Positions 1 through 43,320 of a DNA stretch of 64,000 bases are shown in pieces. Below the pieces are notes generated by a model. That model was not told the origin of the DNA. It did not search any database and saw only the letters and a program-made list of their open reading frames with translations. The position numbers were made by a program, and so were the translations under genes. Each line of letters starts with the position of its first letter. Position 1 is the stretch's first letter. This DNA comes from Escherichia coli (GTDB lineage Bacteria; Pseudomonadota; Gammaproteobacteria; Enterobacterales; Enterobacteriaceae): assembly GCF_044324875.1 (NCBI RefSeq), contig NZ_CP172185.1; one strand, written 5' to 3'.

Positions 1-14
1 TCCCCGCACAACGG

Positions 15-167
15 CTACTTCTTCGGTTCGTAAGCGAGAACAGCCTTAAACTCAATATTACGTTCCTTCACCGTAAACTCACACAGCGAGTCTCCGACCA
101 GAAGCGTAAATCCCAGCACCGTCAAACACAGCACTATGACTGCCGCAAGGGCATATTTCGTCAGCAT
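15..167 (-). CDS. hokE: Type I toxin HokE (Hok/Gef family small membrane toxin), 50 aa
   Basis: Reverse-strand translation from the internal Met gives [50 protein letters not shown], the Hok family sequence; the ORF-track entry 15..203 is an N-terminal over-extension. Confidence 0.85.
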
Positions 168-267
168 GTTTATATTGCCTCCATGCGAAGAAGGGACTAC
201 CATCCAAATTGTTTGGGTTTGGAGTGGCAGCCCCAGGGTTGATAGAAATATCGTCCTGGGGCTTCAT
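79..267 (-). CDS. mokE: Possible mokE (modulator-of-killing reading frame overlapping hokE in another frame)
   Basis: 62-aa ORF that starts upstream of hokE and overlaps it out of frame, as mok does in hok/sok loci; positional inference only. Confidence 0.3.
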
Positions 268-600
268 CTTTCCAGACCTCAGAGTTAACCTGAAACCGGA
301 AAGCTTCAGGCACCCGCCGTTATCTTACCCTTCCTTAGCAAAATAGCTGTTTATTTATACAGTAAGTCCTGTTTCGGACTTCTCAATCCTCATTTGATCA
401 ACTGAAGCTGAACCCGTTTTTTTCTGCATGCCTCAATCGTCAAAATTCTTCGCCACCAGTCCGCACTGCCATAACTTGTCATATTGCAAAATGTAGCCAA
501 TTTGCTTCAGTCACCATCATCAAAAAAAGAAACATTCCAGAACTTCCGCATCTCGCCCAGTCGCTCCCACTTCTATACTGAATAGAAAACGCCAACATAA

Positions 601-1728
<1,128 letters not shown>

Positions 1729-1793
1729 GCCGGGAATTGCCTTACAGAAGAATATCCCTGACAATGGTGTTTTAACTTACATTTAACAATGTT

Positions 1794-2042
1794 ATGAAAC
1801 ACCCTTTAGAAACCTTGACCACCGCAGCAGGCATTTTGCTGATGGCTTTCCTTTCTTGCCTGCTGCTGCCCGCCCCCGCACTGGGGCTGACGCTGGCACA
1901 AAAACTGGTGACCATGTTCCATCTGATGGATCTTAGCCAGCTTTACACTTTATTGTTTTGTCTGTGGTTTTTAGTGCTGGGCACTATTGAGTATTTTGTT
2001 CTGCGCTTTATCTGGCGACGCTGGTTCTCGCTGGCGGATTAA
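1794..2042 (+). CDS. ybdJ: Small inner membrane protein YbdJ
   Basis: 82-aa hydrophobic ORF, expected synteny between ybdK and ybdF. Confidence 0.8.
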
Positions 2043-2106
2043 ACGTCGATTATCGCCGTACTTCGCGGCATACTTTGCTTATTCTCCTTCGCCTAAAGGA
2101 ACGTTT

Positions 2107-2475
2107 ATGGATAAGCAATCACTGCACGAAACGGCGAAACGCCTGGCCCTTGAGTTACCCTTTGTCGAGCTTTGCTGGCCTTTTGGCCCGGAGTTCGATG
2201 TTTTTAAAATTGGCGGCAAGATTTTTATGCTGTCGTCGGAGCTGCGCGGCGTCCCCTTTATCAATCTGAAGTCCGATCCACAAAAATCCCTGTTAAATCA
2301 GCAAATATATCCGAGCATTAAGCCAGGGTATCACATGAATAAAAAGCACTGGATTTCGGTGTATCCCGGAGAGGAAATCTCCGAAGCGTTACTTCGCGAT
2401 CTGATCAACGATTCGTGGAATCTGGTGGTTGATGGTCTGGCTAAACGCGATCAAAAAAGAGTGCGTCCAGGCTAA
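2107..2475 (+). CDS. ybdF: YbdF (DUF419 family protein)
   Basis: Start moved to internal ATG at 2107 ([13 protein letters not shown]...), preceded by an AAAGGA ribosome-binding site; 122 aa. Confidence 0.8.
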
Positions 2476-2568
2476 AGCGGGAATCTATAGCGCATTTTTC
2501 TCGCTTACCATTTCTCGTTGAACCTTGTAATCTGCTGGCACGCAAAATTACTTTCACATGGAGTCTTT

Positions 2569-3222
2569 ATGGATATCATTTCTGTCGCCTTAAAGCGTCA
2601 TTCCACTAAGGCATTTGATGCCAGCAAAAAACTAACCCCGGAACAGGCCGAGCAGATCAAAACTCTCCTGCAATACAGCCCATCCAGCACCAACTCCCAG
2701 CCGTGGCATTTTATTGTTGCCAGCACGGAAGAAGGTAAAGCGCGTGTTGCCAAATCCGCTGCCGGTAATTACGTGTTCAACGAGCGTAAAATGCTTGATG
2801 CCTCGCACGTTGTGGTGTTCTGTGCAAAAACCGCGATGGACGATGCCTGGCTGAAGCTGGTTGTTGACCAGGAAGATGCCGATGGCCGCTTTGCCACGCC
2901 GGAAGCGAAAGCCGCGAACGATAAAGGTCGCAGGTTCTTCGCCGATATGCACCGTAAAGATCTGCATGATGATGCAGAGTGGATGGCAAAACAGGTTTAT
3001 CTCAACGTCGGCAACTTCCTGCTCGGCGTGGCGGCGCTGGGTCTGGACGCGGTACCCATCGAAGGTTTTGACGCCGCAATCCTCGATGCAGAATTTGGTC
3101 TGAAAGAGAAAGGCTACACCAGTCTGGTGGTTGTTCCGGTGGGTCATCACAGCGTTGAAGATTTTAACGCTACGCTGCCGAAATCTCGTCTGCCGCAAAA
3201 CATCACCTTAACCGAAGTGTAA
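2569..3222 (+). CDS. nfsB: Oxygen-insensitive NAD(P)H nitroreductase NfsB
   Basis: [17 protein letters not shown]... recognised as NfsB; start at ATG 2569 with GGAG upstream; 217 aa. Confidence 0.92.
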
Positions 3223-3281
3223 TTCTCTCTTGCCGGGCATCTGCCCGGCTATTTCCCCTCAGATTCTCCTGATTTGCATAA

Positions 3282-4577
<1,296 letters not shown>

Positions 4578-4579
4578 TT

Positions 4580-4620
4580 AAAAAAACCGCTCTTATCGAA
4601 TGGATGAGAGCGGTTTCGGA
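4580..4620. terminator. Bidirectional rho-independent terminator between convergent ybdG and pheP
   Basis: A-run, then hairpin ACCGCTCT...AGAGCGGT, then T-run; located between two convergent stop codons. Confidence 0.6.
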
Positions 4621-4657
4621 TGGTTGACATCATTTTGTCGGATACGGCGTGAATGCC

Positions 4658-6034
4658 TTATTTCCGACGCAGCGTTTTAAACGCTACAAACAGGAATACA
4701 ATCCACACTGGCAGCAGAATCGCTGACAAGCGCATATCATCCATCGTGCACATCAGCAGCAAAATCATGCCGAGGAAGGCAATGCAGAGATAGTTGCCGA
4801 ACGGATAAAGCAGCGCCTTAAACTGTGTTTCACGTCCCTGACGTCGCATCGCCGCGCGAAAACGCAGATGCGCCAGGCAGATCATAATCCAGTTCAACAG
4901 CAGCGTTGCTACCACCAGCGCCATCAGCAGACCAAACGCTTTTTGCGGCAGCAGATAGTTGATTAACACCACCAGCGAAGTGATCGCTCCGGAAAGCATC
5001 AGCGAGTTAATCGGCACGCCGCGACGGCTGACGCGAGTCAAAAACTTCGGCGCATTACCCTGCACAGAAAGGCCAAACAGCATGCGGCTGTTAGAGTAAA
5101 CCCCGCTGTTATACACCGATAATGATGCTACCAGAATGACGAAGTTCAGCGCAGAAGCTACCACGTTGCTGTCGAGATTATGGAAAATCATCACAAAAGG
5201 GCTACTGTTGGATTTCACTTCCACCCACGGATAGAGTGCCAGTAAAACCACCAGTGAACCGATATAAAACAGCAGGATGCGATACACCACCTGATTCACT
5301 GCTTTCGGGATGCTTTTTTCCGGATCGCGCGCTTCAGCCGCAGTAATCCCAATCAGCTCCAGACCGCCGAAGGAGAACATAATTACCGCCAGCGACAAAA
5401 TCAGCCCATTCCAGCCGGTGGCGAAGAAACCACCGTAGCGCCAGAGGTTGTCGATACTGGCTTTTTCGCCGCCGTGCCCAGAAAACAGCAGCCACAGGCC
5501 AAAGCCGATCATACCGATGATCGCCAGCACTTTAATCAGCGCAAACCAGAATTCGGTTTCGCCATATAAGCGCACGTTTACCAGGTTAACGGCGTTGATG
5601 ATAATAAAGAAGGCGGCAGCCCAAATCCACGTTGGAACATCCGGGAACCAGTACTGCATATAGATGCCCGCAGCGGTCAGCTCTGCCATTCCCACCAGCA
5701 CGAACATCACCCAGTAGTTCCAGCCAGAGAGGAAGCCCGCAAACGGTCCCCAGTATTTATAGGCAAAGTGGGCAAATGAACCAGATACCGGCTCTTCGAC
5801 CACCATCTCGCCGAGCTGGCGCATAATCAGGAAAGCGATGATCCCGGCGACGCCGTAGCCCAGCAATACAGCCGGACCCGCCATCTGAATCGCCGGGCCA
5901 ATGCCAAGAAACAGACCAGTACCAATTGCGCCACCCAGCGCAATCAGTTGAATATGACGGTTATGTAATCCGCGATGAAGCGTCGGCTCTTGATTCGACG
6001 CAGTATCTTCCGATACGGTTGACGCGTTTTTCAC
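4658..6034 (-). CDS. pheP: Phenylalanine-specific permease PheP (APC family)
   Basis: Recognised PheP sequence; the product aligns from VKNASTVSED..., implying a GTG start at 6034 (458 aa) rather than the upstream ATG of the ORF track. Confidence 0.88.
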   Translation of the reverse strand: MKNASTVSEDTASNQEPTLHRGLHNRHIQLIALGGAIGTGLFLGIGPAIQMAGPAVLLGYGVAGIIAFLIMRQLGEMVVEEPVSGSFAHFAYKYWGPFAGFLSGWNYWVMFVLVGMAELTAAGIYMQYWFPDVPTWIWAAAFFIIINAVNLVNVRLYGETEFWFALIKVLAIIGMIGFGLWLLFSGHGGEKASIDNLWRYGGFFATGWNGLILSLAVIMFSFGGLELIGITAAEARDPEKSIPKAVNQVVYRILLFYIGSLVVLLALYPWVEVKSNSSPFVMIFHNLDSNVVASALNFVILVASLSVYNSGVYSNSRMLFGLSVQGNAPKFLTRVSRRGVPINSLMLSGAITSLVVLINYLLPQKAFGLLMALVVATLLLNWIMICLAHLRFRAAMRRQGRETQFKALLYPFGNYLCIAFLGMILLLMCTMDDMRLSAILLPVWIVFLFVAFKTLRRK

Positions 6035-6135
6035 GCCTTTCCCCTGTGTGTCTTTTTTGTTGAGGGGCACCTTTTAACATTTAGTGCCCATCGTCGCAAG
6101 ACACAATCCACACGGTTAAACCGGGTATCCTGCTT

Positions 6136-9100
6136 TTATTTCCGTACCCGATGTCGGTGCAGCCACATCAGCTTATATGCCGCCGGGATAATAAACAGCG
6201 ATAGCAAAGGCGCGGTGATCATGCCGCCAATCATCGGCGCGGCAATCCGGCTCATCACCTCTGAACCTGCTCCCGTTCCCCACAGAATCGGCAGCAGACC
6301 AGCGATAATCACCGCCACCGTCATCGCTTTCGGGCGCACGCGCAGGACCGCGCCGTGATACAACGCCTCATCCAGCTTCTGCTCGCTGAATGTTTGCGGA
6401 TTATTCAACGACGGCTCGGCCTCTATGGCGTGACGTAAATACATCAGCATCACCACGCCAAATTCGGCGGCAACCCCGGCGAGGGCAATAAAACCGGTGC
6501 CCGTCGCCACGGAAAGATGAAAGCCCATCCACCACAGCAACCAGATGCCGCCCACCAGCGCAAACGGTACGCTGCTGATAATCAGCAACGCTTCGCCCAC
6601 CCGACGGAACGCCAGATATAACAGCACGAAGATGATCATCAGCGTCATCGGCACCATGAGTTTCAGCTTATGGTTGGCGCGTTCCAGTAGCTCGAACTGC
6701 CCGGAGAATGCCACGCTGGTGCCCGGTTTTAACTGTACTTTTTCAGCTATCGCTTTTTGCAGATCGTGAACCACCGACACCATGTCACGATCGCGGGCAT
6801 CGATATAAATCCAGCTCGTCGGGCGCGCATTCTCGGTTTTCAGCATCGACGGTCCGGTAGAGACTTTAACGTCGGCCACGTCTGCCAGGGTGATTTGCTG
6901 CTTCATCGGCGTCAGGATCGGCAACTGGCGCAGCGCCTGCGGACTATCGCGCCAGCTTTGCGGATAACGCAGATTAATTGGATAACGGGCAATCCCTTCC
7001 ACCGTTTCGCCAACCATCGCCCCGCCCACCGCAGAAGTCACAAACAATTGCACATCCGCCACCGTCATACCGTAACGCGCGGCTTTTTCACGGTTAATCT
7101 CAACGTTGATATAGCGCCCACCTTCCAGACGCTCAGCAAGCGCAGAAGCTACGCCTGGCACCGTTCGTGCCACTTCTTCAATTTGCTCAGCCATCGCGTC
7201 GATATCCGCCAGCACAGTACCGGAAACTTTAATGCCGATGGGGCTTTTAATGCCAGTCGAGAGCATATCGATACGGTTACGAATTGGCGGCACCCACAGA
7301 TTCGCCAGCCCCGGCAGCCGCACGGTGTTATCCAGTTCCTCGATGATTTTGTCCATCGTCATGCCTGGCCGCCACTGCTCTTGTGGCTTAAGCTGGATGG
7401 TCGTTTCTACCATCTCCAGCGGAGCAGAATCGGTGGCGGTTTCCGCTTTGCCGGTTTTGCCAAATACCCGCGCCACTTCAGGTACGCTCATAATCAGCTT
7501 GTCGGTTTTTTGCAGCATAATCGCCGCCTCTGCTGCGGAAATCCCCGGCAGCGTCGATGGCATATACAACAAGTCACCTTCATTGATCTGCGGTAAAAAC
7601 TCCCCGCCAACTTTATTGAGCGGCCAGAGAACCGTCAGCACCGAAAGCGCTGCCACCAGCAGCGTGGTTTTCGGCCAGTGCAGTACTTTCAGCAACAGCG
7701 GATGATAAACACGAATCAAAAAGCGATTGAGCGGGTTACTGCTTTCCGGCGGAATTTTGCCACGGATCCAGTAGCCCATCAGGATAGGGATCACTACGAT
7801 CGCCAGCAGCGCCGCACCCGCCATCGCATACGTTTTGGTGAACGCCAGCGGGCCAAACAGACGCCCTTCCTGCCCTTCCAGGGTGAAGATCGGGATAAAC
7901 GACAACGTGATAATCAGCAGACTGATAAACAGCGCCGGCCCCACTTCAACAGATGCATCGGTGATCACCTGCCAGCGCGTTTTATTATCCAGCGTGGCGT
8001 CAGGATGCTGGTGCTGCCACTCTTCCAGCCGTTTATGCGCATTCTCGATCATGACGATAGCGGCATCGACCATCGCCCCGACGGCAATAGCAATACCGCC
8101 CAGCGACATAATATTGGCGTTCAGTCCCTGAAAGTGCATGACAATAAAAGCAATACACAACCCCAGCGGCAACGAAATAATCGCCACCAGCGCCGAGCGC
8201 ACATGCCAGAGAAACAGCGCACAGACTACCGCCACCACAATAAACTCTTCCAGCAACTTGCCGCTGAGGTTGTCGATGGCGCGGTCAATGAGCTGGCTGC
8301 GATCGTATGTTGTAACTATCTCCACGCCTTCCGGCAGACTACTTTTCAGCGTTTCCAGTTTGTCTTTCACGGCGGCGATCACTTCTCGGGCGTTTTTGCC
8401 GGAGCGCAGGATCACCACCCCGCCCGCCACTTCGCCTTCGCCGTTCAGTTCGGCAATGCCCCGGCGCATTTCCGGGCCAATCTGGACCTTCGCAACATCA
8501 CGCAGATAAACGGGCACGCCATTTTCACTGGCTTTTAAAACGATGTGATTAAAGTCGTCGAGCGTTTGCAGATAGCCGCTGGCTCGCACCATATATTCCG
8601 CTTCCGCCAGTTCGATCGACGAACCGCCCGCTTCCTGGTTTGAAGCATCCAGCGCGCTTTTTACTTCGGCGAGACTGATGCCATATTGCGCCAGGCGCTG
8701 AGGATCGATAACCACCTGATACTCTTTCACCACACCGCCTACCGACGCCACTTCCGCAACGTCAGGAATGGTTTTCAGCTCATATTTGAGAAACCAGTCC
8801 TGCAATGAGCGTAAATCGGCCAGATCGTGCTTACCGCTGCGATCCACCAGTGCATATTCATAGATCCAGCCAACACCCGTGGCATCTGGCCCCAACTCGG
8901 CGCTGACTCCCGCAGGCAGCTTACCCTGTACCTGGTTGAGGTACTCCAGCACCCGCGAGCGCGCCCAGTACGGATCGGTGCCATCTTCGAAAATGACATA
9001 CACATAAGAGTCGCCAAACTGCGAAAAACCGCGCACAGTCTTCGCGCCAGGCACCGACAACATGGTGGTGGTTAGCGGATAAGTCACCTGATTTTCAACG

Positions 9101-9279
9101 ATTTGCGGTGCCTGACCGGGATAGCTGGTTTTAATAATCACCTGCACATCGGAGAGATCCGGCAGCGCATCCACTGGCGTATTAATGATGGTCCAGGTGC
9201 CCCAGATACTCAGAAATAACGCGCCCATCAGCACCAGAAAACGGTTCGCCACCGAGCGACGAATAATCCATTCAATCAT
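6136..9279 (-). CDS. cusA: Cu(I)/Ag(I) efflux RND transporter CusA
   Basis: 1047-aa RND permease, last gene of cusCFBA. Confidence 0.95.
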
Positions 9280-9290
9280 TGGTTATTCCC

Positions 9291-10514
9291 TCAATGTGCA
9301 TGGGTAGCACTTTCAGAGCGCATCCGCTCCAGTGCGCCAGAAATATTGGCTTCGGAATCAATCAGGAACAGGCCGCTGGAAACCACCTTTTCACCTTCCG
9401 CCAGACCAGAGCGTAACGCGGTGACGCCTTGCGATGCCTGGAAAACGGCAACGCGTTTCGGTACAAAGCGCCCGTCGGCATCAACGGTAATCACCCGCTG
9501 TTCGTTGCCGGTATCAATCAGCGCCTGTGACGGAATGAGCAGCATCGGTTCGCTGGCGGTGTTGAGTTGCAACCAGGCGTTCATTCCCGGTTTTAGCGCC
9601 TCGTCGGCGTTGTCGACTTCCAGACGCAGCTGCAACGTGCGGGTCGCGGCATCCACGCCAGGTAGTAGCGTCCATTTGCGGATGGTGAGTGTTTTATCAG
9701 GTCGCGCCGGAACGGTGAGCGTAAACTGCGAGGCATCTTTCACCAGCCAGGCGATGGACTCCGGGATCGCAGCAGTGACCCACACCGGGTCCATACCCTG
9801 AATTTTCGCGACCACGTTATCTTTGGCGATATTCATTCCCGCGCGCAGATCAAACGCGGTGATCACGCCATCAATGGGCGCTTTGAGCGTAAAGCGAGTC
9901 TGTATTTTTTGCGTGGCGATCAGGCGGCGAATATCCGCCTCCGGCATTCCCGCCAGTCTCAGCCGCTCAAGAATGCCTTCAGTCTGGGTCGCCGTACCGC
10001 CGGTTTCGCGCAGCAGTAAATACTCACTCTGCGCTTCCACCCAGTCGGGAATGGTCAGGTCGAGAAGCGGTGTGCCCTTTTGTACTTTATCGCCCACGGT
10101 AAGCGGATACACCTTGTCGATAAACCCGGCAGCGCGAGCCTGCACAATGGCATACTGATACTCGTTGTAACTGACATTCGCCGGGAAACTCTGGGCAAAA
10201 GTCAGCGGTCCGCGCGTGACGGTAGCCGTTTTCACCCCCAGATTCTGCGTCTGAGTCGGGTCAATGCGCACACCAGACGCAGAACTCTCTTCATCGGCAT
10301 ATTTCGGCACCAGATCCATATCCATAAACGGCGATTTACCTGGTTTATCGAACCGCGTATTGGGATACATCGGGTCGTACCAGAATAAGATTTTACGTTC
10401 TGCGGTCGACGTTTTTTCTGCGGGCGGTTCAGCCCGGTCAAACCAGGTAAAACCTGCCGCAGAAATAATACCGCCCGCGATCATGCTGCCGATAATAAGC
10501 GCGATTTTTTTCAT
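9291..10514 (-). CDS. cusB: Cu(I)/Ag(I) efflux membrane fusion protein CusB
   Basis: 407 aa, signal/TM N-terminus, between cusF and cusA. Confidence 0.93.
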   Translation of the reverse strand: MKKIALIIGSMIAGGIISAAGFTWFDRAEPPAEKTSTAERKILFWYDPMYPNTRFDKPGKSPFMDMDLVPKYADEESSASGVRIDPTQTQNLGVKTATVTRGPLTFAQSFPANVSYNEYQYAIVQARAAGFIDKVYPLTVGDKVQKGTPLLDLTIPDWVEAQSEYLLLRETGGTATQTEGILERLRLAGMPEADIRRLIATQKIQTRFTLKAPIDGVITAFDLRAGMNIAKDNVVAKIQGMDPVWVTAAIPESIAWLVKDASQFTLTVPARPDKTLTIRKWTLLPGVDAATRTLQLRLEVDNADEALKPGMNAWLQLNTASEPMLLIPSQALIDTGNEQRVITVDADGRFVPKRVAVFQASQGVTALRSGLAEGEKVVSSGLFLIDSEANISGALERMRSESATHAH

Positions 10515-10529
10515 CTCATTAAACCTGGG

Positions 10530-10862
10530 TTACTGGCTGACTTTAATATCCTGTAATAAAGAAAGGTTGCCCTGCTGGACAAAATTAAACGCCACTTTGT
10601 CGCCAGTTTTAATTTCACTCATTTTCGTCTGCGGAGTGATGGTAAAGCGCATGGTCATCTCCGGCCAGTTCACGGCAGCAATCGGATCGTGATGGATGGT
10701 GATTTTTTTGCTTTCCAGATCAACACCTTTTACCACGCCGGTGGCACTAATGACCTGTGGTTGTGCTTCGCTCATGGTTTCATGATGATGTTCGTTAGCC
10801 TGGGCATTAAAGCCAATCACGGTAAACAGACTGAACATTGCGACTTGCAGTGCTTTTTTCAT
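10530..10862 (-). CDS. cusF: Periplasmic copper/silver chaperone CusF
   Basis: 110 aa with signal peptide and His/Met-rich motifs. Confidence 0.93.
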   Translation of the reverse strand: MKKALQVAMFSLFTVIGFNAQANEHHHETMSEAQPQVISATGVVKGVDLESKKITIHHDPIAAVNWPEMTMRFTITPQTKMSEIKTGDKVAFNFVQQGNLSLLQDIKVSQ

Positions 10863-10885
10863 TTATTCTCTCCTGGAGTTAAAAA

Positions 10886-12268
10886 TTATTGCTGCCAACC
10901 GCCACCAAGTGCGGTATATAAAGAAATTTCGTTGACCTGACGGGCATAATTCAGGTCAAGTAAGGTTTGTCGGGTTGCAAATAAAGAACGCTCGGCATCC
11001 AGCACTTCCAGATAACTGACTGCGCCGTGCTGATATAATGCCCGCGCCCGTTGCAAAGTAATTTGCAGCGACGCCAGATAACGCTGCTGGGCGCTGATTT
11101 GATCGTTCAGGCTTTGACGTAATGCCAGCGCATCTGCCACTTCTTTAAAGGCGTTCTGGATTTTCTGTTCATAATTCACTACCGACTGCTGCTGGCGAAT
11201 TTCGGCGATATCCAGATTGGCCTGGTTGCGTCCGGCATTAAAAATGGGGATCTCAATTTTAGGAATAAAATTCCACATCCCGCTGCTGGCGTTAAATAAT
11301 GACGACAGATCGCTGCTGGCGGTTGATATTCCGCTGGTCAGGCTTATAGATGGGAAAAATGCCGCGCGTGCGGCCCCAATATTGGCATTAGCCGCCATTA
11401 ACGCGTGTTCAGCTTCCATAATATCCGGGCGCTGCAATAAGATTTGCGACGACAAGCCCGCCGGTAATTTAACGCTTTGCAGGCTGTCGCTGTTTACTGT
11501 CTGCGCTTGCGGCAGCTTGCCGTAGCTTCCCAATAATAGTTGCAATGCATTATTCGCCTGCGCCAGTTCCCCCTGACGTTTAGCGATGTCGCTGCGGGTA
11601 CTTTCAATCACCCCGCGAGCCTGTTCCAGCGCCAGAACATTGCTGCTACCGGTCAACAGTTGTTTTTCGACAAACGCATATGACTGCTGATAATTACGCA
11701 GCGTTTCTTCGGCTATTTGCAATTGCGCATACGCCAGCTGCTGATTGAAATATCTTTGCGCGACATTAGAAACCAGCAGAATATGCACCGCGCGCTGGGC
11801 TTCCTCAGTGGCTAAATAATTTTGTCGCTCGGCTTCGCTCATGTTCTTTAAGCGACCGAAAAAATCGAGATCAAAGCTGGCGTTAAGGCCAGTCGAGAAC
11901 TCCCGCGTCGTGGCTGAATCGCCTTTAAGATTGCCGCTCCAGCTGCCGCTGCCCTCGCCATTGAGCTGTGGGTAGCGGTCGGCATCGGTCAGACGATATT
12001 GCGCCCGCGCTTCCTGCACTTTCAGCGTCGCCATGCGCAAATCCCGGTTATTCACCAGCGCCTCGCTAATCAGCGTCTTCACCTGATTATCAACAAAAAA
12101 GGTGCGCCAGCCCGCGTTCTGGTAGTTATCTGCTGCGTTAACCAGGCCGTTCTGGTTGAGTGAGAACTGCTGCGGCACGGGCATTGCCGGGCGCTGATAA
12201 TCCGGTGCCAGTGAACAACCGGTTAGCGCAAGGGCCACACAAAATGGCAGAAGTTTACAAGGAGACAT
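10886..12268 (-). CDS. cusC: Outer membrane efflux channel CusC (lipoprotein)
   Basis: OMF family protein; lipobox LTGCS near the N-terminus. Confidence 0.93.
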   Translation of the reverse strand: MSPCKLLPFCVALALTGCSLAPDYQRPAMPVPQQFSLNQNGLVNAADNYQNAGWRTFFVDNQVKTLISEALVNNRDLRMATLKVQEARAQYRLTDADRYPQLNGEGSGSWSGNLKGDSATTREFSTGLNASFDLDFFGRLKNMSEAERQNYLATEEAQRAVHILLVSNVAQRYFNQQLAYAQLQIAEETLRNYQQSYAFVEKQLLTGSSNVLALEQARGVIESTRSDIAKRQGELAQANNALQLLLGSYGKLPQAQTVNSDSLQSVKLPAGLSSQILLQRPDIMEAEHALMAANANIGAARAAFFPSISLTSGISTASSDLSSLFNASSGMWNFIPKIEIPIFNAGRNQANLDIAEIRQQQSVVNYEQKIQNAFKEVADALALRQSLNDQISAQQRYLASLQITLQRARALYQHGAVSYLEVLDAERSLFATRQTLLDLNYARQVNEISLYTALGGGWQQ

Positions 12269-12337
12269 AGGCTCATAATTTCTGGTGATTTTATGCCGCC
12301 AACTTTACTCGCCAGGCTCTGATTTTCCGGTGACAGG

Positions 12338-12359
12338 AAAATGACAAAATTGTCATTTT
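12338..12359. promoter_or_regulatory. CusR box (response-regulator operator) in the divergent cusC-cusR promoter
   Basis: Perfect 22-bp palindrome AAAATGACAAAATTGTCATTTT in the cusC-cusR intergenic region, matching the known CusR site. Confidence 0.8.
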
Positions 12360-12424
12360 GCCAATAAGCGATTGCCATCTGATCCCGCTACTCTAGAATT
12401 GCCCGGGCAACATGCGGAGGAAAT

Positions 12425-13108
12425 ATGAAACTGTTGATTGTCGAAGATGAAAAGAAAACCGGAGAATACTTGACCAAAGGGTTAACCGAAGCCGGTTTTG
12501 TGGTCGATTTGGCCGACAATGGGCTGAATGGCTACCATCTGGCGATGACCGGTGATTATGACCTGATAATCCTCGATATTATGCTGCCGGACGTGAACGG
12601 CTGGGATATCGTGCGCATGTTGCGCTCCGCCAATAAAGGGATGCCGATTCTGTTGCTTACCGCGCTTGGTACCATTGAACATCGCGTCAAGGGGCTGGAG
12701 TTGGGGGCGGATGACTACCTGGTGAAGCCGTTCGCTTTTGCTGAACTGCTGGCGCGGGTGCGCACTCTACTGCGGCGCGGGGCGGCGGTAATTATCGAAA
12801 GTCAGTTTCAGGTTGCCGATTTGATGGTCGATCTCGTCAGCCGCAAAGTCACCCGTAGCGGCACGCGCATCACGTTGACCAGTAAAGAATTTACTTTGCT
12901 GGAGTTTTTCCTCCGCCATCAAGGTGAAGTGCTGCCCCGCTCGCTTATCGCCTCGCAGGTGTGGGACATGAATTTCGACAGCGATACCAACGCCATTGAT
13001 GTGGCGGTGAAGCGGCTGCGCGGCAAAATCGACAACGACTTTGAGCCAAAGCTGATTCAGACCGTGCGCGGCGTGGGTTACATGCTAGAGGTGCCGGATG
13101 GTCAGTAA
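12425..13108 (+). CDS. cusR: Copper-responsive response regulator CusR (OmpR family)
   Basis: 227 aa, receiver domain plus winged-helix domain; divergent from cusC. Confidence 0.95.
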
Positions 13109-43235: not shown

Positions 43236-43277
43236 GTCATACCACTCGCCTGATTATTTTTAGCTATGTTGGATTTT

Positions 43278-43304
43278 GCCACGGTTTATACCGTGGCTTT
43301 TTTT
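43278..43304 (+). terminator. Rho-independent terminator of allDCE
   Basis: GCCACGG-TTTATA-CCGTGGC followed by TTTTTTT. Confidence 0.75.
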
Positions 43305-43320
43305 GCGGTAAATTCAGGTA

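Follow-up and report, generated by a model that had tools for sequence, protein, structure and literature searches.

The hokE toxin gene and its surroundings

The window analysed here is a stretch of 64,000 nt of NZ_CP172185.1, and all coordinates in this text are window positions. Its left edge carries hokE (15..167, minus strand), whose translation gives a Hok/Gef membrane toxin of 50 amino acids followed by a TAG stop codon. The product matches the Pfam HOK_GEF family over the full profile (PF01848; 32.1 bits against a cut-off of 22, E=8e-8, profile positions 1-42 of 42) and is identical to HokE of K-12 MG1655 (b4415). A hydrophobic stretch spans residues 6-24, cysteines stand at positions 14 and 29, and position 46 is a tyrosine. 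The NCBIfam HokA and Hok-family models gave matches below their cut-offs only (47.7 versus 89 and 38.9 versus 73, respectively), so that the name HokE rests on the identity with the K-12 protein and on the position of the gene. K-12 HokE is toxic on expression (bioRxiv 10.1101/2025.08.07.668861), and the Hok protein of the window, being identical to it, does not show the inactivating mutations that the initial annotation had named as a possible objection.

A Shine-Dalgarno sequence, GGAGG, can be read at 178..182 on the minus strand, 10 nt 5' of the hok AUG, and is unchanged across 11 alleles. The ORF listing presents hok as a longer frame of 62 amino acids (15..203, minus strand), owing to an in-frame ATG 36 nt upstream. 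We rejected this ATG at 203 as a start codon: it is the reverse complement of the -10 element TACCAT of the sok promoter described below and has no usable ribosome-binding site, and its conservation therefore needs no coding explanation.

The right-hand neighbour of hokE is ybdK (610..1728, plus strand; Pfam GCS2, E=8e-98). The proposal that a 50-aa Hok toxin gene of a type I locus sits next to ybdK is borne out by the ORF, by its Pfam match and by the position of ybdK. Positions 1..620 of the window matched 5,410 of the 5,426 complete E. coli genomes, and the match covered at least 80% of the query in 4,891 of them. The best match to this segment has 99.8% identity and is annotated as 'type I toxin-antitoxin system toxin HokE' beside ybdK; over 20 kb, the best identity among complete E. 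coli genomes was 99.4%. The gene order in MG1655 is ybdK, sokE (ncRNA b4835), hokE (b4415), IS186B and entD; the window is in the reversed orientation, and the entD side falls beyond its edge. The order ybdK-hokE-(IS186)-entD was found in 8 of 10 fetched E. coli genomes; in JJ1886 and strain 23779, the hokE copies are instead bordered by genes for SDR family oxidoreductases.

We consider it very probable that the left edge of the window is a chromosomal hokE/sokE type I toxin-antitoxin locus, in which all elements lying within the window are intact. Such a locus is already known: K-12 and thousands of E. coli genomes have it annotated, and both its LexA box and its RNA editing are in the literature. 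For the annotation of this window, our analysis gives the exact positions of SokE and its promoter, of the start of the hok mRNA, and of the LexA and editing sites.

Antisense RNA, hok leader and upstream reading frame

The antisense RNA SokE is predicted at 211..271 on the plus strand, with a length of 61 nt and ends placed by homology to MG1655 sokE (b4835). It aligns end to end with the 60-nt K-12 RNA, with one substitution and one 1-nt indel, the latter being an extra base in the hairpin loop. The comparison with annotated hokE/sokE that had been suggested at the outset gave an identical toxin and an RNA that aligns over its whole length. A Sok gene had been expected around 170..260 on the plus strand; the strand was correct, but the RNA lies at 211..271, the expected range covering the promoter and most of the RNA. 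SokE consists of a single-stranded 5' tail of 11 nt, GUUUGGGUUUG, a long hairpin and a U-rich 3' tail, UUCAUCUUU. Its fold has an energy of -25.6 kcal/mol (z=-3.5), and none of 200 shuffled sequences was equally stable. The tail is exactly complementary to nt 95-105 of the hok mRNA, which comprise the target loop and the upper stem. A weak Rfam match to mir-1990 on the same strand (213..281, 19.8 bits against a cut-off of 63) was discarded, as it is the Sok hairpin itself.

The sokE promoter (175..203, plus strand) was read from the sequence as a -35 element TTGCCT (175..180), a 17-nt spacer and a -10 element TACCAT (198..203), with a start at about 211. Its hexamers match the consensus at 8 of 12 positions, and the threshold of the automatic scan is 9 of 12. 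Indeed, the scan of 1..620 for consensus promoters and terminators found nothing, because the Sok promoter reaches only 8 of 12 matches, the -35 of hok is unrecognisable and the loop of the Sok terminator is too large; homology and visual inspection accordingly served to locate the promoter and terminator signals. The combination TTGCCT-17-TACCAT is listed at the K-12 ybdK/sokE spacer among the RpoD holoenzyme sites of a genomic SELEX map (PMC3946193). This promoter is invariant in 10 of 11 alleles, and the remaining one, O157 copy 1, carries a single substitution in the spacer at the equivalent of window base 195. SokE would be an antisense RNA with its own promoter and its own terminator hairpin; a Sok gene on the strand opposite hok is what the initial annotation had expected.

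The 5' end of the hok mRNA was placed at about 315 on the minus strand (GGGUGCC), at the start of a match to Rfam RF01794 ('sok') which covers 159..315 and the full model positions 1-157 (80.3 bits, cut-off 59, E=3e-18). This match sits on the hok-sense strand and corresponds to the hok leader, from the 5' end to the hok AUG, not to the Sok strand. A putative -10 element of the hok promoter, TAAGAT, can be read at 322..327 (minus strand), 6 nt before the presumed start at 315; its counterpart in an alignment with K-12 hokC is TATAAT, and it is accompanied by no good -35.

The minimum-energy fold of the leader (z=-3.5) contains a tac stem, a 5' hairpin, a target hairpin and a small hairpin over the hok AUG. 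Folding places the tac element, GGGUGCCU, at 308..315 (minus strand), and in the open form the tac stem joins nt 1-6 with nt 54-58 (258..262) and encloses the 5' hairpin of nt 13-48 (268..303, minus strand). The Sok-target hairpin, mRNA nt 82-123 (193..234, minus strand), is found in the minimum-energy folds as well as in the Rfam consensus structure. A fold of the leader had been proposed as a check for fbi and tac elements; tac is seen, but the 3' partner of fbi lies to the left of the window. Across 11 distinct hokE leaders, standard pairs fill 98.5% of the cells predicted to pair, and two pairs of the target hairpin switch from A-U to G-C on both sides among hokE alleles. This covariation backing is modest, the alleles being 97% identical. 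A YUNR U-turn motif is absent from the target loop (nt 99-107, CCCAAACAA), which is without U, and CUGA or CUCA stands there in some other hokE alleles. In R1 the YUNR motif speeds Sok binding, and it is an aid, not a strict requirement.

Upstream of hok, and overlapping it, an ORF of 62 amino acids (79..267, minus strand) starts at nt 49 of the mRNA, out of frame with hok, and ends inside it. Such an ORF had been described as mok-like in the initial annotation; the ORF and its different frame stand, but the label mokE is weakly supported, because the ORF lies off the mok position of R1 and hokC and its frame varies among alleles. Aligned to hokC, hokE has no AUG at the position of the mokC and R1 mok starts, reading GGGG for GAGG and AAACCC for AUG. 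Moreover, mokE is not annotated in MG1655 and the term has no mention in the searchable literature. Depending on 1-nt indels in two loops, that of the Sok hairpin and that of the target, the ORF from AUG49 takes three forms: the out-of-frame form of 62 amino acids in the window and several alleles, an in-frame Hok fusion of 83 amino acids in K-12, O157 copy 2, E. albertii and E. whittamii, and a form of 22 amino acids, with its stop 14 nt before the hok Shine-Dalgarno sequence, in N3 copy 2, JJ1886 copy 2 and others. Both the 83-aa and the 22-aa form occur in other Escherichia species, and the Pseudocitrobacter locus lacks an ORF from AUG49.

The missing mok start codon, the dependence of the upstream ORF on single indels, its absence in Pseudocitrobacter and the silence of annotation and literature on mokE are what one would expect of a hokE variant without an R1-type mok. 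In such a variant, Hok would be translated from its own strong GGAGG and controlled by LexA, by mRNA folding (fbi and the hairpin over the hok AUG) and by Sok-triggered decay, and the ORF at 79..267 would be there by chance or would matter only through the translation of its first ~20 codons. However, AUG49 (265..267) is invariant in all Escherichia alleles, lies within the Sok-complementary stretch and stands 9 nt after a GAGG. In R1, mok starts at an AUG 58 nt before hok and has to be translated as far as the hok Shine-Dalgarno sequence, the sequence and the frame of Mok being immaterial as only translation that reaches this site counts (PMC9841398); since R1 tolerates a change of frame, such changes would be tolerable for the 62-aa and the 83-aa forms. 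The alleles being about 97% identical, invariance and variation both carry little statistical weight. We regard this variant as possible but rather doubtful; it is compatible with the main reading of the locus as hokE/sokE.

Extended to the family, the same comparison might mean that the LexA-boxed hok genes of Escherichia and Pseudocitrobacter form a subfamily without a canonical mok, in which translation would be independent of mok or would proceed through a frame-independent translation of the leader. A separate point is that tandem copies would be orthogonal pairs. We offer both as tentative suggestions, which we do not favour at present. The only mildly new points of our work are of this comparative kind, namely the plasticity of the upstream-ORF frame and the divergence of Sok tails and target loops from one tandem copy to the other, and they concern the family, not the window.

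LexA operator, editing motif and the left edge

A LexA box, CTGTATAAATAAACAG, was found at 347..362 (no strand assigned) by a match to the pattern CTGT-N8-ACAG; counted from the presumed start of the hok mRNA, it occupies -47 to -32. The span of 15-300 first given for the locus does contain the toxin gene and Sok, but the locus runs on beyond it, with the mRNA start at about 315, the -10 at 322..327 and this operator. Neither the LexA operator nor the TadA editing site was part of that earlier description. The 16-mer is the same in every intact hokE copy examined, and also in 10 of 11 loci of other Escherichia species and Pseudocitrobacter faecalis, which were retrieved by a pattern leaving the six central bases of the box free. 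The box is thus conserved in sequence and in distance across Escherichia and Pseudocitrobacter. In the literature, hokE is a listed LexA-box gene with a heterology index of 4.9 (PMC11228462) and appears as an SOS toxin-antitoxin locus (PMC2826370). In a recent K-12 transcriptome, hokE was neither induced by AZT nor dependent on LexA cleavage (0.47-fold and 0.89-fold, PMC11228462). By its operator sequence the hokE locus fits the LexA regulon, the binding of LexA and the induction being predicted.

Another motif is TACG at 29..32 on the minus strand, read from the sequence at codon 46 of hokE (TAC, Tyr; codon at 30..32, edited A at base 31). From K-12 data we predict that this is a TadA A-to-I site that would change Tyr46 to Cys. 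The K-12 hokE mRNA is reported to be edited to 40% at position 46, from Tyr to Cys, and Cys46 is important in HokB (PMC5630033, PMC12214031); the role of the Hok cysteine positions 14, 29 and 46 is treated in the same papers (PMC12214031, PMC5630033). TACG is kept in all Escherichia alleles examined, and Pseudocitrobacter encodes the cysteine directly (TGC).

The window ends 14 nt past the hokE stop, and IS186B of MG1655 starts 18 nt past it. The initial annotation had placed IS186 beside hokE in K-12 and the end of the window before that point, which these distances confirm. The first arm, GCGGGGA, of a GC hairpin 3' of the hokE stop lies at 1..7 (minus strand), as recognised by alignment with MG1655 and O158:H23. 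This hairpin, GCGGGGAGTAATCCCCGC (GGGG-N6-CCCC), is the IS186 target in K-12, with an IS186 end that reads CATAAGCGCTAACTTAAGGG. The remainder of this hairpin is to the left of window position 1, as are the terminator and the 3' fbi element. In the intact arrangement, the hairpin is followed by AGGCACC and then by the terminator, GCCCGCGG...CTGCGGGC. In O158:H23, the closest relative, the hok mRNA has 412 nt, reaches about 97 nt beyond the window edge and has the terminator at its end; in its minimum-energy fold, nt 1-8 pair with nt 355-362 (fbi, AGGCACCU), and the tandem copy folds likewise.

The 3' side of hokE is occupied in different ways among E. coli genomes. A query of 380 bp found 8,367 places in 5,412 records, with at least two places in 32 of 60 evenly sampled records, and a single hokE copy also occurs in some genomes. 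Over half of the E. coli genomes carry tandem copies, and these diverge chiefly at the tail of Sok and at the target loop, for which we distinguished four types (CAAACCCAAAC, CAAACCUGAAC, CAAACCAGAC and CGAGCCCCAAC). If true, this divergence of tail and target loop would make the tandem hokE copies mutually orthogonal toxin-antitoxin pairs. Together with the frame instability of the supposed mok ORF, the divergence of the Sok tail between tandem copies bears on the control of chromosomal hok loci and on whether these are truly inactive. In some genomes, IS150 is inserted in the hok leader at the window equivalent of ~239, and strain 19SZHZ713Rt carries both an IS150 in the leader and an IS421 downstream, at the place of IS186.

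A silent relic might be suspected here, either because an IS186 or IS421 in the GGGG-N6-CCCC hairpin, just outside the window, would have removed fbi and the terminator, or because of subtle changes. The insertions of MG1655 and 19SZHZ713Rt at this very place point in that direction, as does a window edge that falls before the insertion site. Moreover, K-12 hokA, hokC and hokE are viewed as inactivated by insertion elements (PMC5630033, PMC12214031), and chromosomal hok loci reportedly gave no post-segregational killing (bioRxiv 10.1101/2025.08.07.668861). On the other side, everything in the window is intact and matches alleles with complete 3' parts (O158:H23 and N3), the two closest complete genomes carry a second hokE locus directly downstream, with no insertion sequence there, and the K-12 hokE mRNA is still transcribed and edited (PMC5630033, PMC12214031). 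A relic therefore appears improbable to us on balance, and we retain the reading of a hokE/sokE locus with intact elements.

Two ORFs run antisense to hok on the plus strand (136..288 and 209..346). We rejected the idea that they encode a real, conserved protein and give it practically no credence. In several genomes, the PGAP annotation has a hypothetical protein of 89 amino acids at the equivalent place, but in the window the ORF is split into pieces of 50 and 45 amino acids, and the annotations of the closest genome and of others flag it as frameshifted or with an internal stop, a pseudogene in close relatives. No Pfam or NCBIfam family matches 136..288, and hok, Sok and their signals account fully for the conservation of the region.

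Proposed mechanism and comparison with known systems

The original description of chromosomal hok loci is reportedly that of Pedersen & Gerdes in 1999. The mechanism of the hokE/sokE locus is likely to be that of R1 hok/sok with a LexA operator added, and the Hok-family mechanism has been described (PMC9841398). Our proposal builds on the elements observed here and on their location and conservation: the toxin ORF, Sok and its promoter, the structured leader, the complementarity of tail and loop, the LexA box and the editing motif. A weak promoter, with its -10 at 322..327 and overlapped by the LexA operator at 347..362, would give a hok mRNA of ~410 nt from ~315 on the minus strand. In the full-length mRNA, the 5' GGGUGCCU would pair with the 3' AGGCACCU in a fold-back inhibition, the partner being some 40-50 nt past the left edge. 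By analogy with R1, this closed mRNA would be neither translated nor bound by Sok. Slow trimming of the 3' end might then free the 5' end and allow refolding into the tac stem with nt 54-58 and the target hairpin at 193..234, which the predicted folds support.

SokE would be made constitutively from TTGCCT-17-TACCAT, and its 11-nt tail would bind the target loop. The resulting Sok/hok duplex, over mRNA nt 45-105, would cover AUG49, block translation into hok and mark the mRNA for cleavage by RNase III. When hok transcription exceeds Sok, for example after LexA cleavage in an SOS induction, the 50-aa HokE would insert into the inner membrane and damage it. TadA editing of codon 46 (TAC to TIC), as extrapolated from K-12, would supply a second cysteine. 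Points that sit uneasily with this mechanism are the doubtful mok step, the target loop without YUNR and the K-12 hokE that is not SOS-induced. In addition, the chromosomal hok loci tested so far reportedly showed no post-segregational killing and have been proposed to be inactive (bioRxiv 10.1101/2025.08.07.668861; PMC5630033; PMC12214031).

Among known systems, tisB/istR-1, symE/symR and dinQ/agrB resemble hokE/sokE in that a LexA box lies at the toxin promoter and the antisense promoter is independent of LexA (PMC2826370), whereas their toxins and RNAs are unrelated to Hok/Sok. In addition, tisB was induced 73-fold in K-12 in the same experiment in which hokE was not (PMC11228462).

K-12 hokC (gef)/mokC/sokC is closer to our locus, with the 5' end GGCGGGTGCYTGARGC, the leader architecture, an IS186 shortly past the stop and an editable Tyr46 (PMC12214031). 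In hokC, however, mokC is annotated; it begins 57 nt before the toxin gene, in the same frame and behind a GAGG, at a start codon that hokE is without. No LexA box aligns in hokC.

The founding member, R1 hok/mok/sok, differs from hokE in several respects. The hokE locus is chromosomal, has a LexA operator upstream and has no AUG at the R1 mok position; its out-of-frame upstream ORF starts 100 nt before hok, against 58 nt in R1. Cys46 would be obtained by RNA editing in hokE and is encoded in R1 (bioRxiv 10.1101/2025.08.07.668861, PMC12214031). The hokE target loop is without YUNR, and no role in post-segregational killing is known for chromosomal copies. Nevertheless, both have a Hok/Gef toxin of ~50 amino acids, an antisense RNA that is complementary to the mRNA leader and combines a single-stranded 5' tail with a terminator hairpin, a target hairpin, and a 5' tac element that can pair with the 3' fbi or with a nearby upstream box. 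In both, the Sok -35 overlaps the hok Shine-Dalgarno region (mechanism in PMC9841398).

The nearest counterpart is K-12 MG1655 hokE/sokE (b4415/b4835) itself. K-12 has one C fewer in the Sok hairpin loop, so that AUG49 is in frame and gives the 83-aa fusion instead of the 62-aa ORF of the window; its Sok tail reads GUUC... versus GUUU... in the window; and it bears IS186B at 18 nt past the stop, where the window has already ended. The two loci agree in the position beside ybdK, in HokE, in the 16-nt LexA core, in the Sok promoter hexamers and in the TACG motif.

Tandem copies and insertion sequences at the hokE/sokE locus

Many E. coli genomes carry two hokE/sokE loci in tandem, placed between ybdK and entD, the second copy lying in the stretch equivalent to that directly left of window position 1 (for instance at 2509..3166 in the region L001 of another genome, in that region's own coordinates, and likewise in L003, L005, L008 and L009). 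In JJ1886, genes for SDR family oxidoreductases are found beside the tandem loci instead of entD. The tandem copies diverge in the region of the Sok 5' tail and target loop (columns 88-110 of alignment A2) and are near-identical elsewhere, a pattern suggesting pairs that do not cross-react.

The locus is also a hot spot for insertion sequences. IS150 breaks the hok leader at the same point in two unrelated strains (L006 3267..4636 and L010 2765..4134, in the coordinates of these regions), equivalent to about position 239 of the window. In K-12 and in strain 19SZHZ713Rt, IS186/IS421 lies within a GGGG-N6-CCCC hairpin 3' of the hokE stop codon; the portion of this hairpin inside the window occupies 1..7.

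Reading frames upstream of and antisense to hok

The upstream, mok-like ORF that begins at hok mRNA nt 49 (79..267 (-) in the window) is found in three different frames across natural hokE alleles (that of the window and those of regions L001-L010 and L013-L018): it encodes 22 aa, encodes 62 aa out of frame with hok, or runs on into hok as an 83-aa fusion. Insertions or deletions of 1 nt, in the loop of the Sok hairpin and in the target loop, account for these differences. In the same allele comparison, the hokE-type locus of Pseudocitrobacter faecalis had no nt-49 upstream ORF.

On the opposite strand, antisense to hok (window-equivalent 136..405 (+)), PGAP annotates a 'hypothetical protein' of 89 aa in several genomes. 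This gene call is probably spurious. The window has it broken into ORFs of 50 aa and 45 aa, and in close relatives the gene is flagged as frameshifted.

Wider window and genome comparison

With window 1..20000 as query, the best complete E. coli genomes matched at 99.4%, with the match spread across about 30 kb of their sequence, and thus have roughly 10 kb extra compared with the window. The matched regions carry annotations for a type VI secretion VgrG and for a zincin-like toxin-domain protein, among others. Elsewhere, only some 21.6 kb separate a tRNA-Arg gene (anticodon TCT; 21767..21843 (-)) from hokE, and STnc480 (RF02068), an enterobacterial sRNA family, matches at 43242..43308 (-) with 84.9 bits (cut-off 72).

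Strand assignment of the Rfam sok family

RF01794, the Rfam family that bears the name 'sok antitoxin', has its match in the window on the hok-sense strand (159..315 (-)), from the hok mRNA 5' end up to the hok AUG. A pipeline using RF01794 would therefore place 'sok' on the wrong strand, as the annotated sokE of K-12 lies on the strand opposite to this match.
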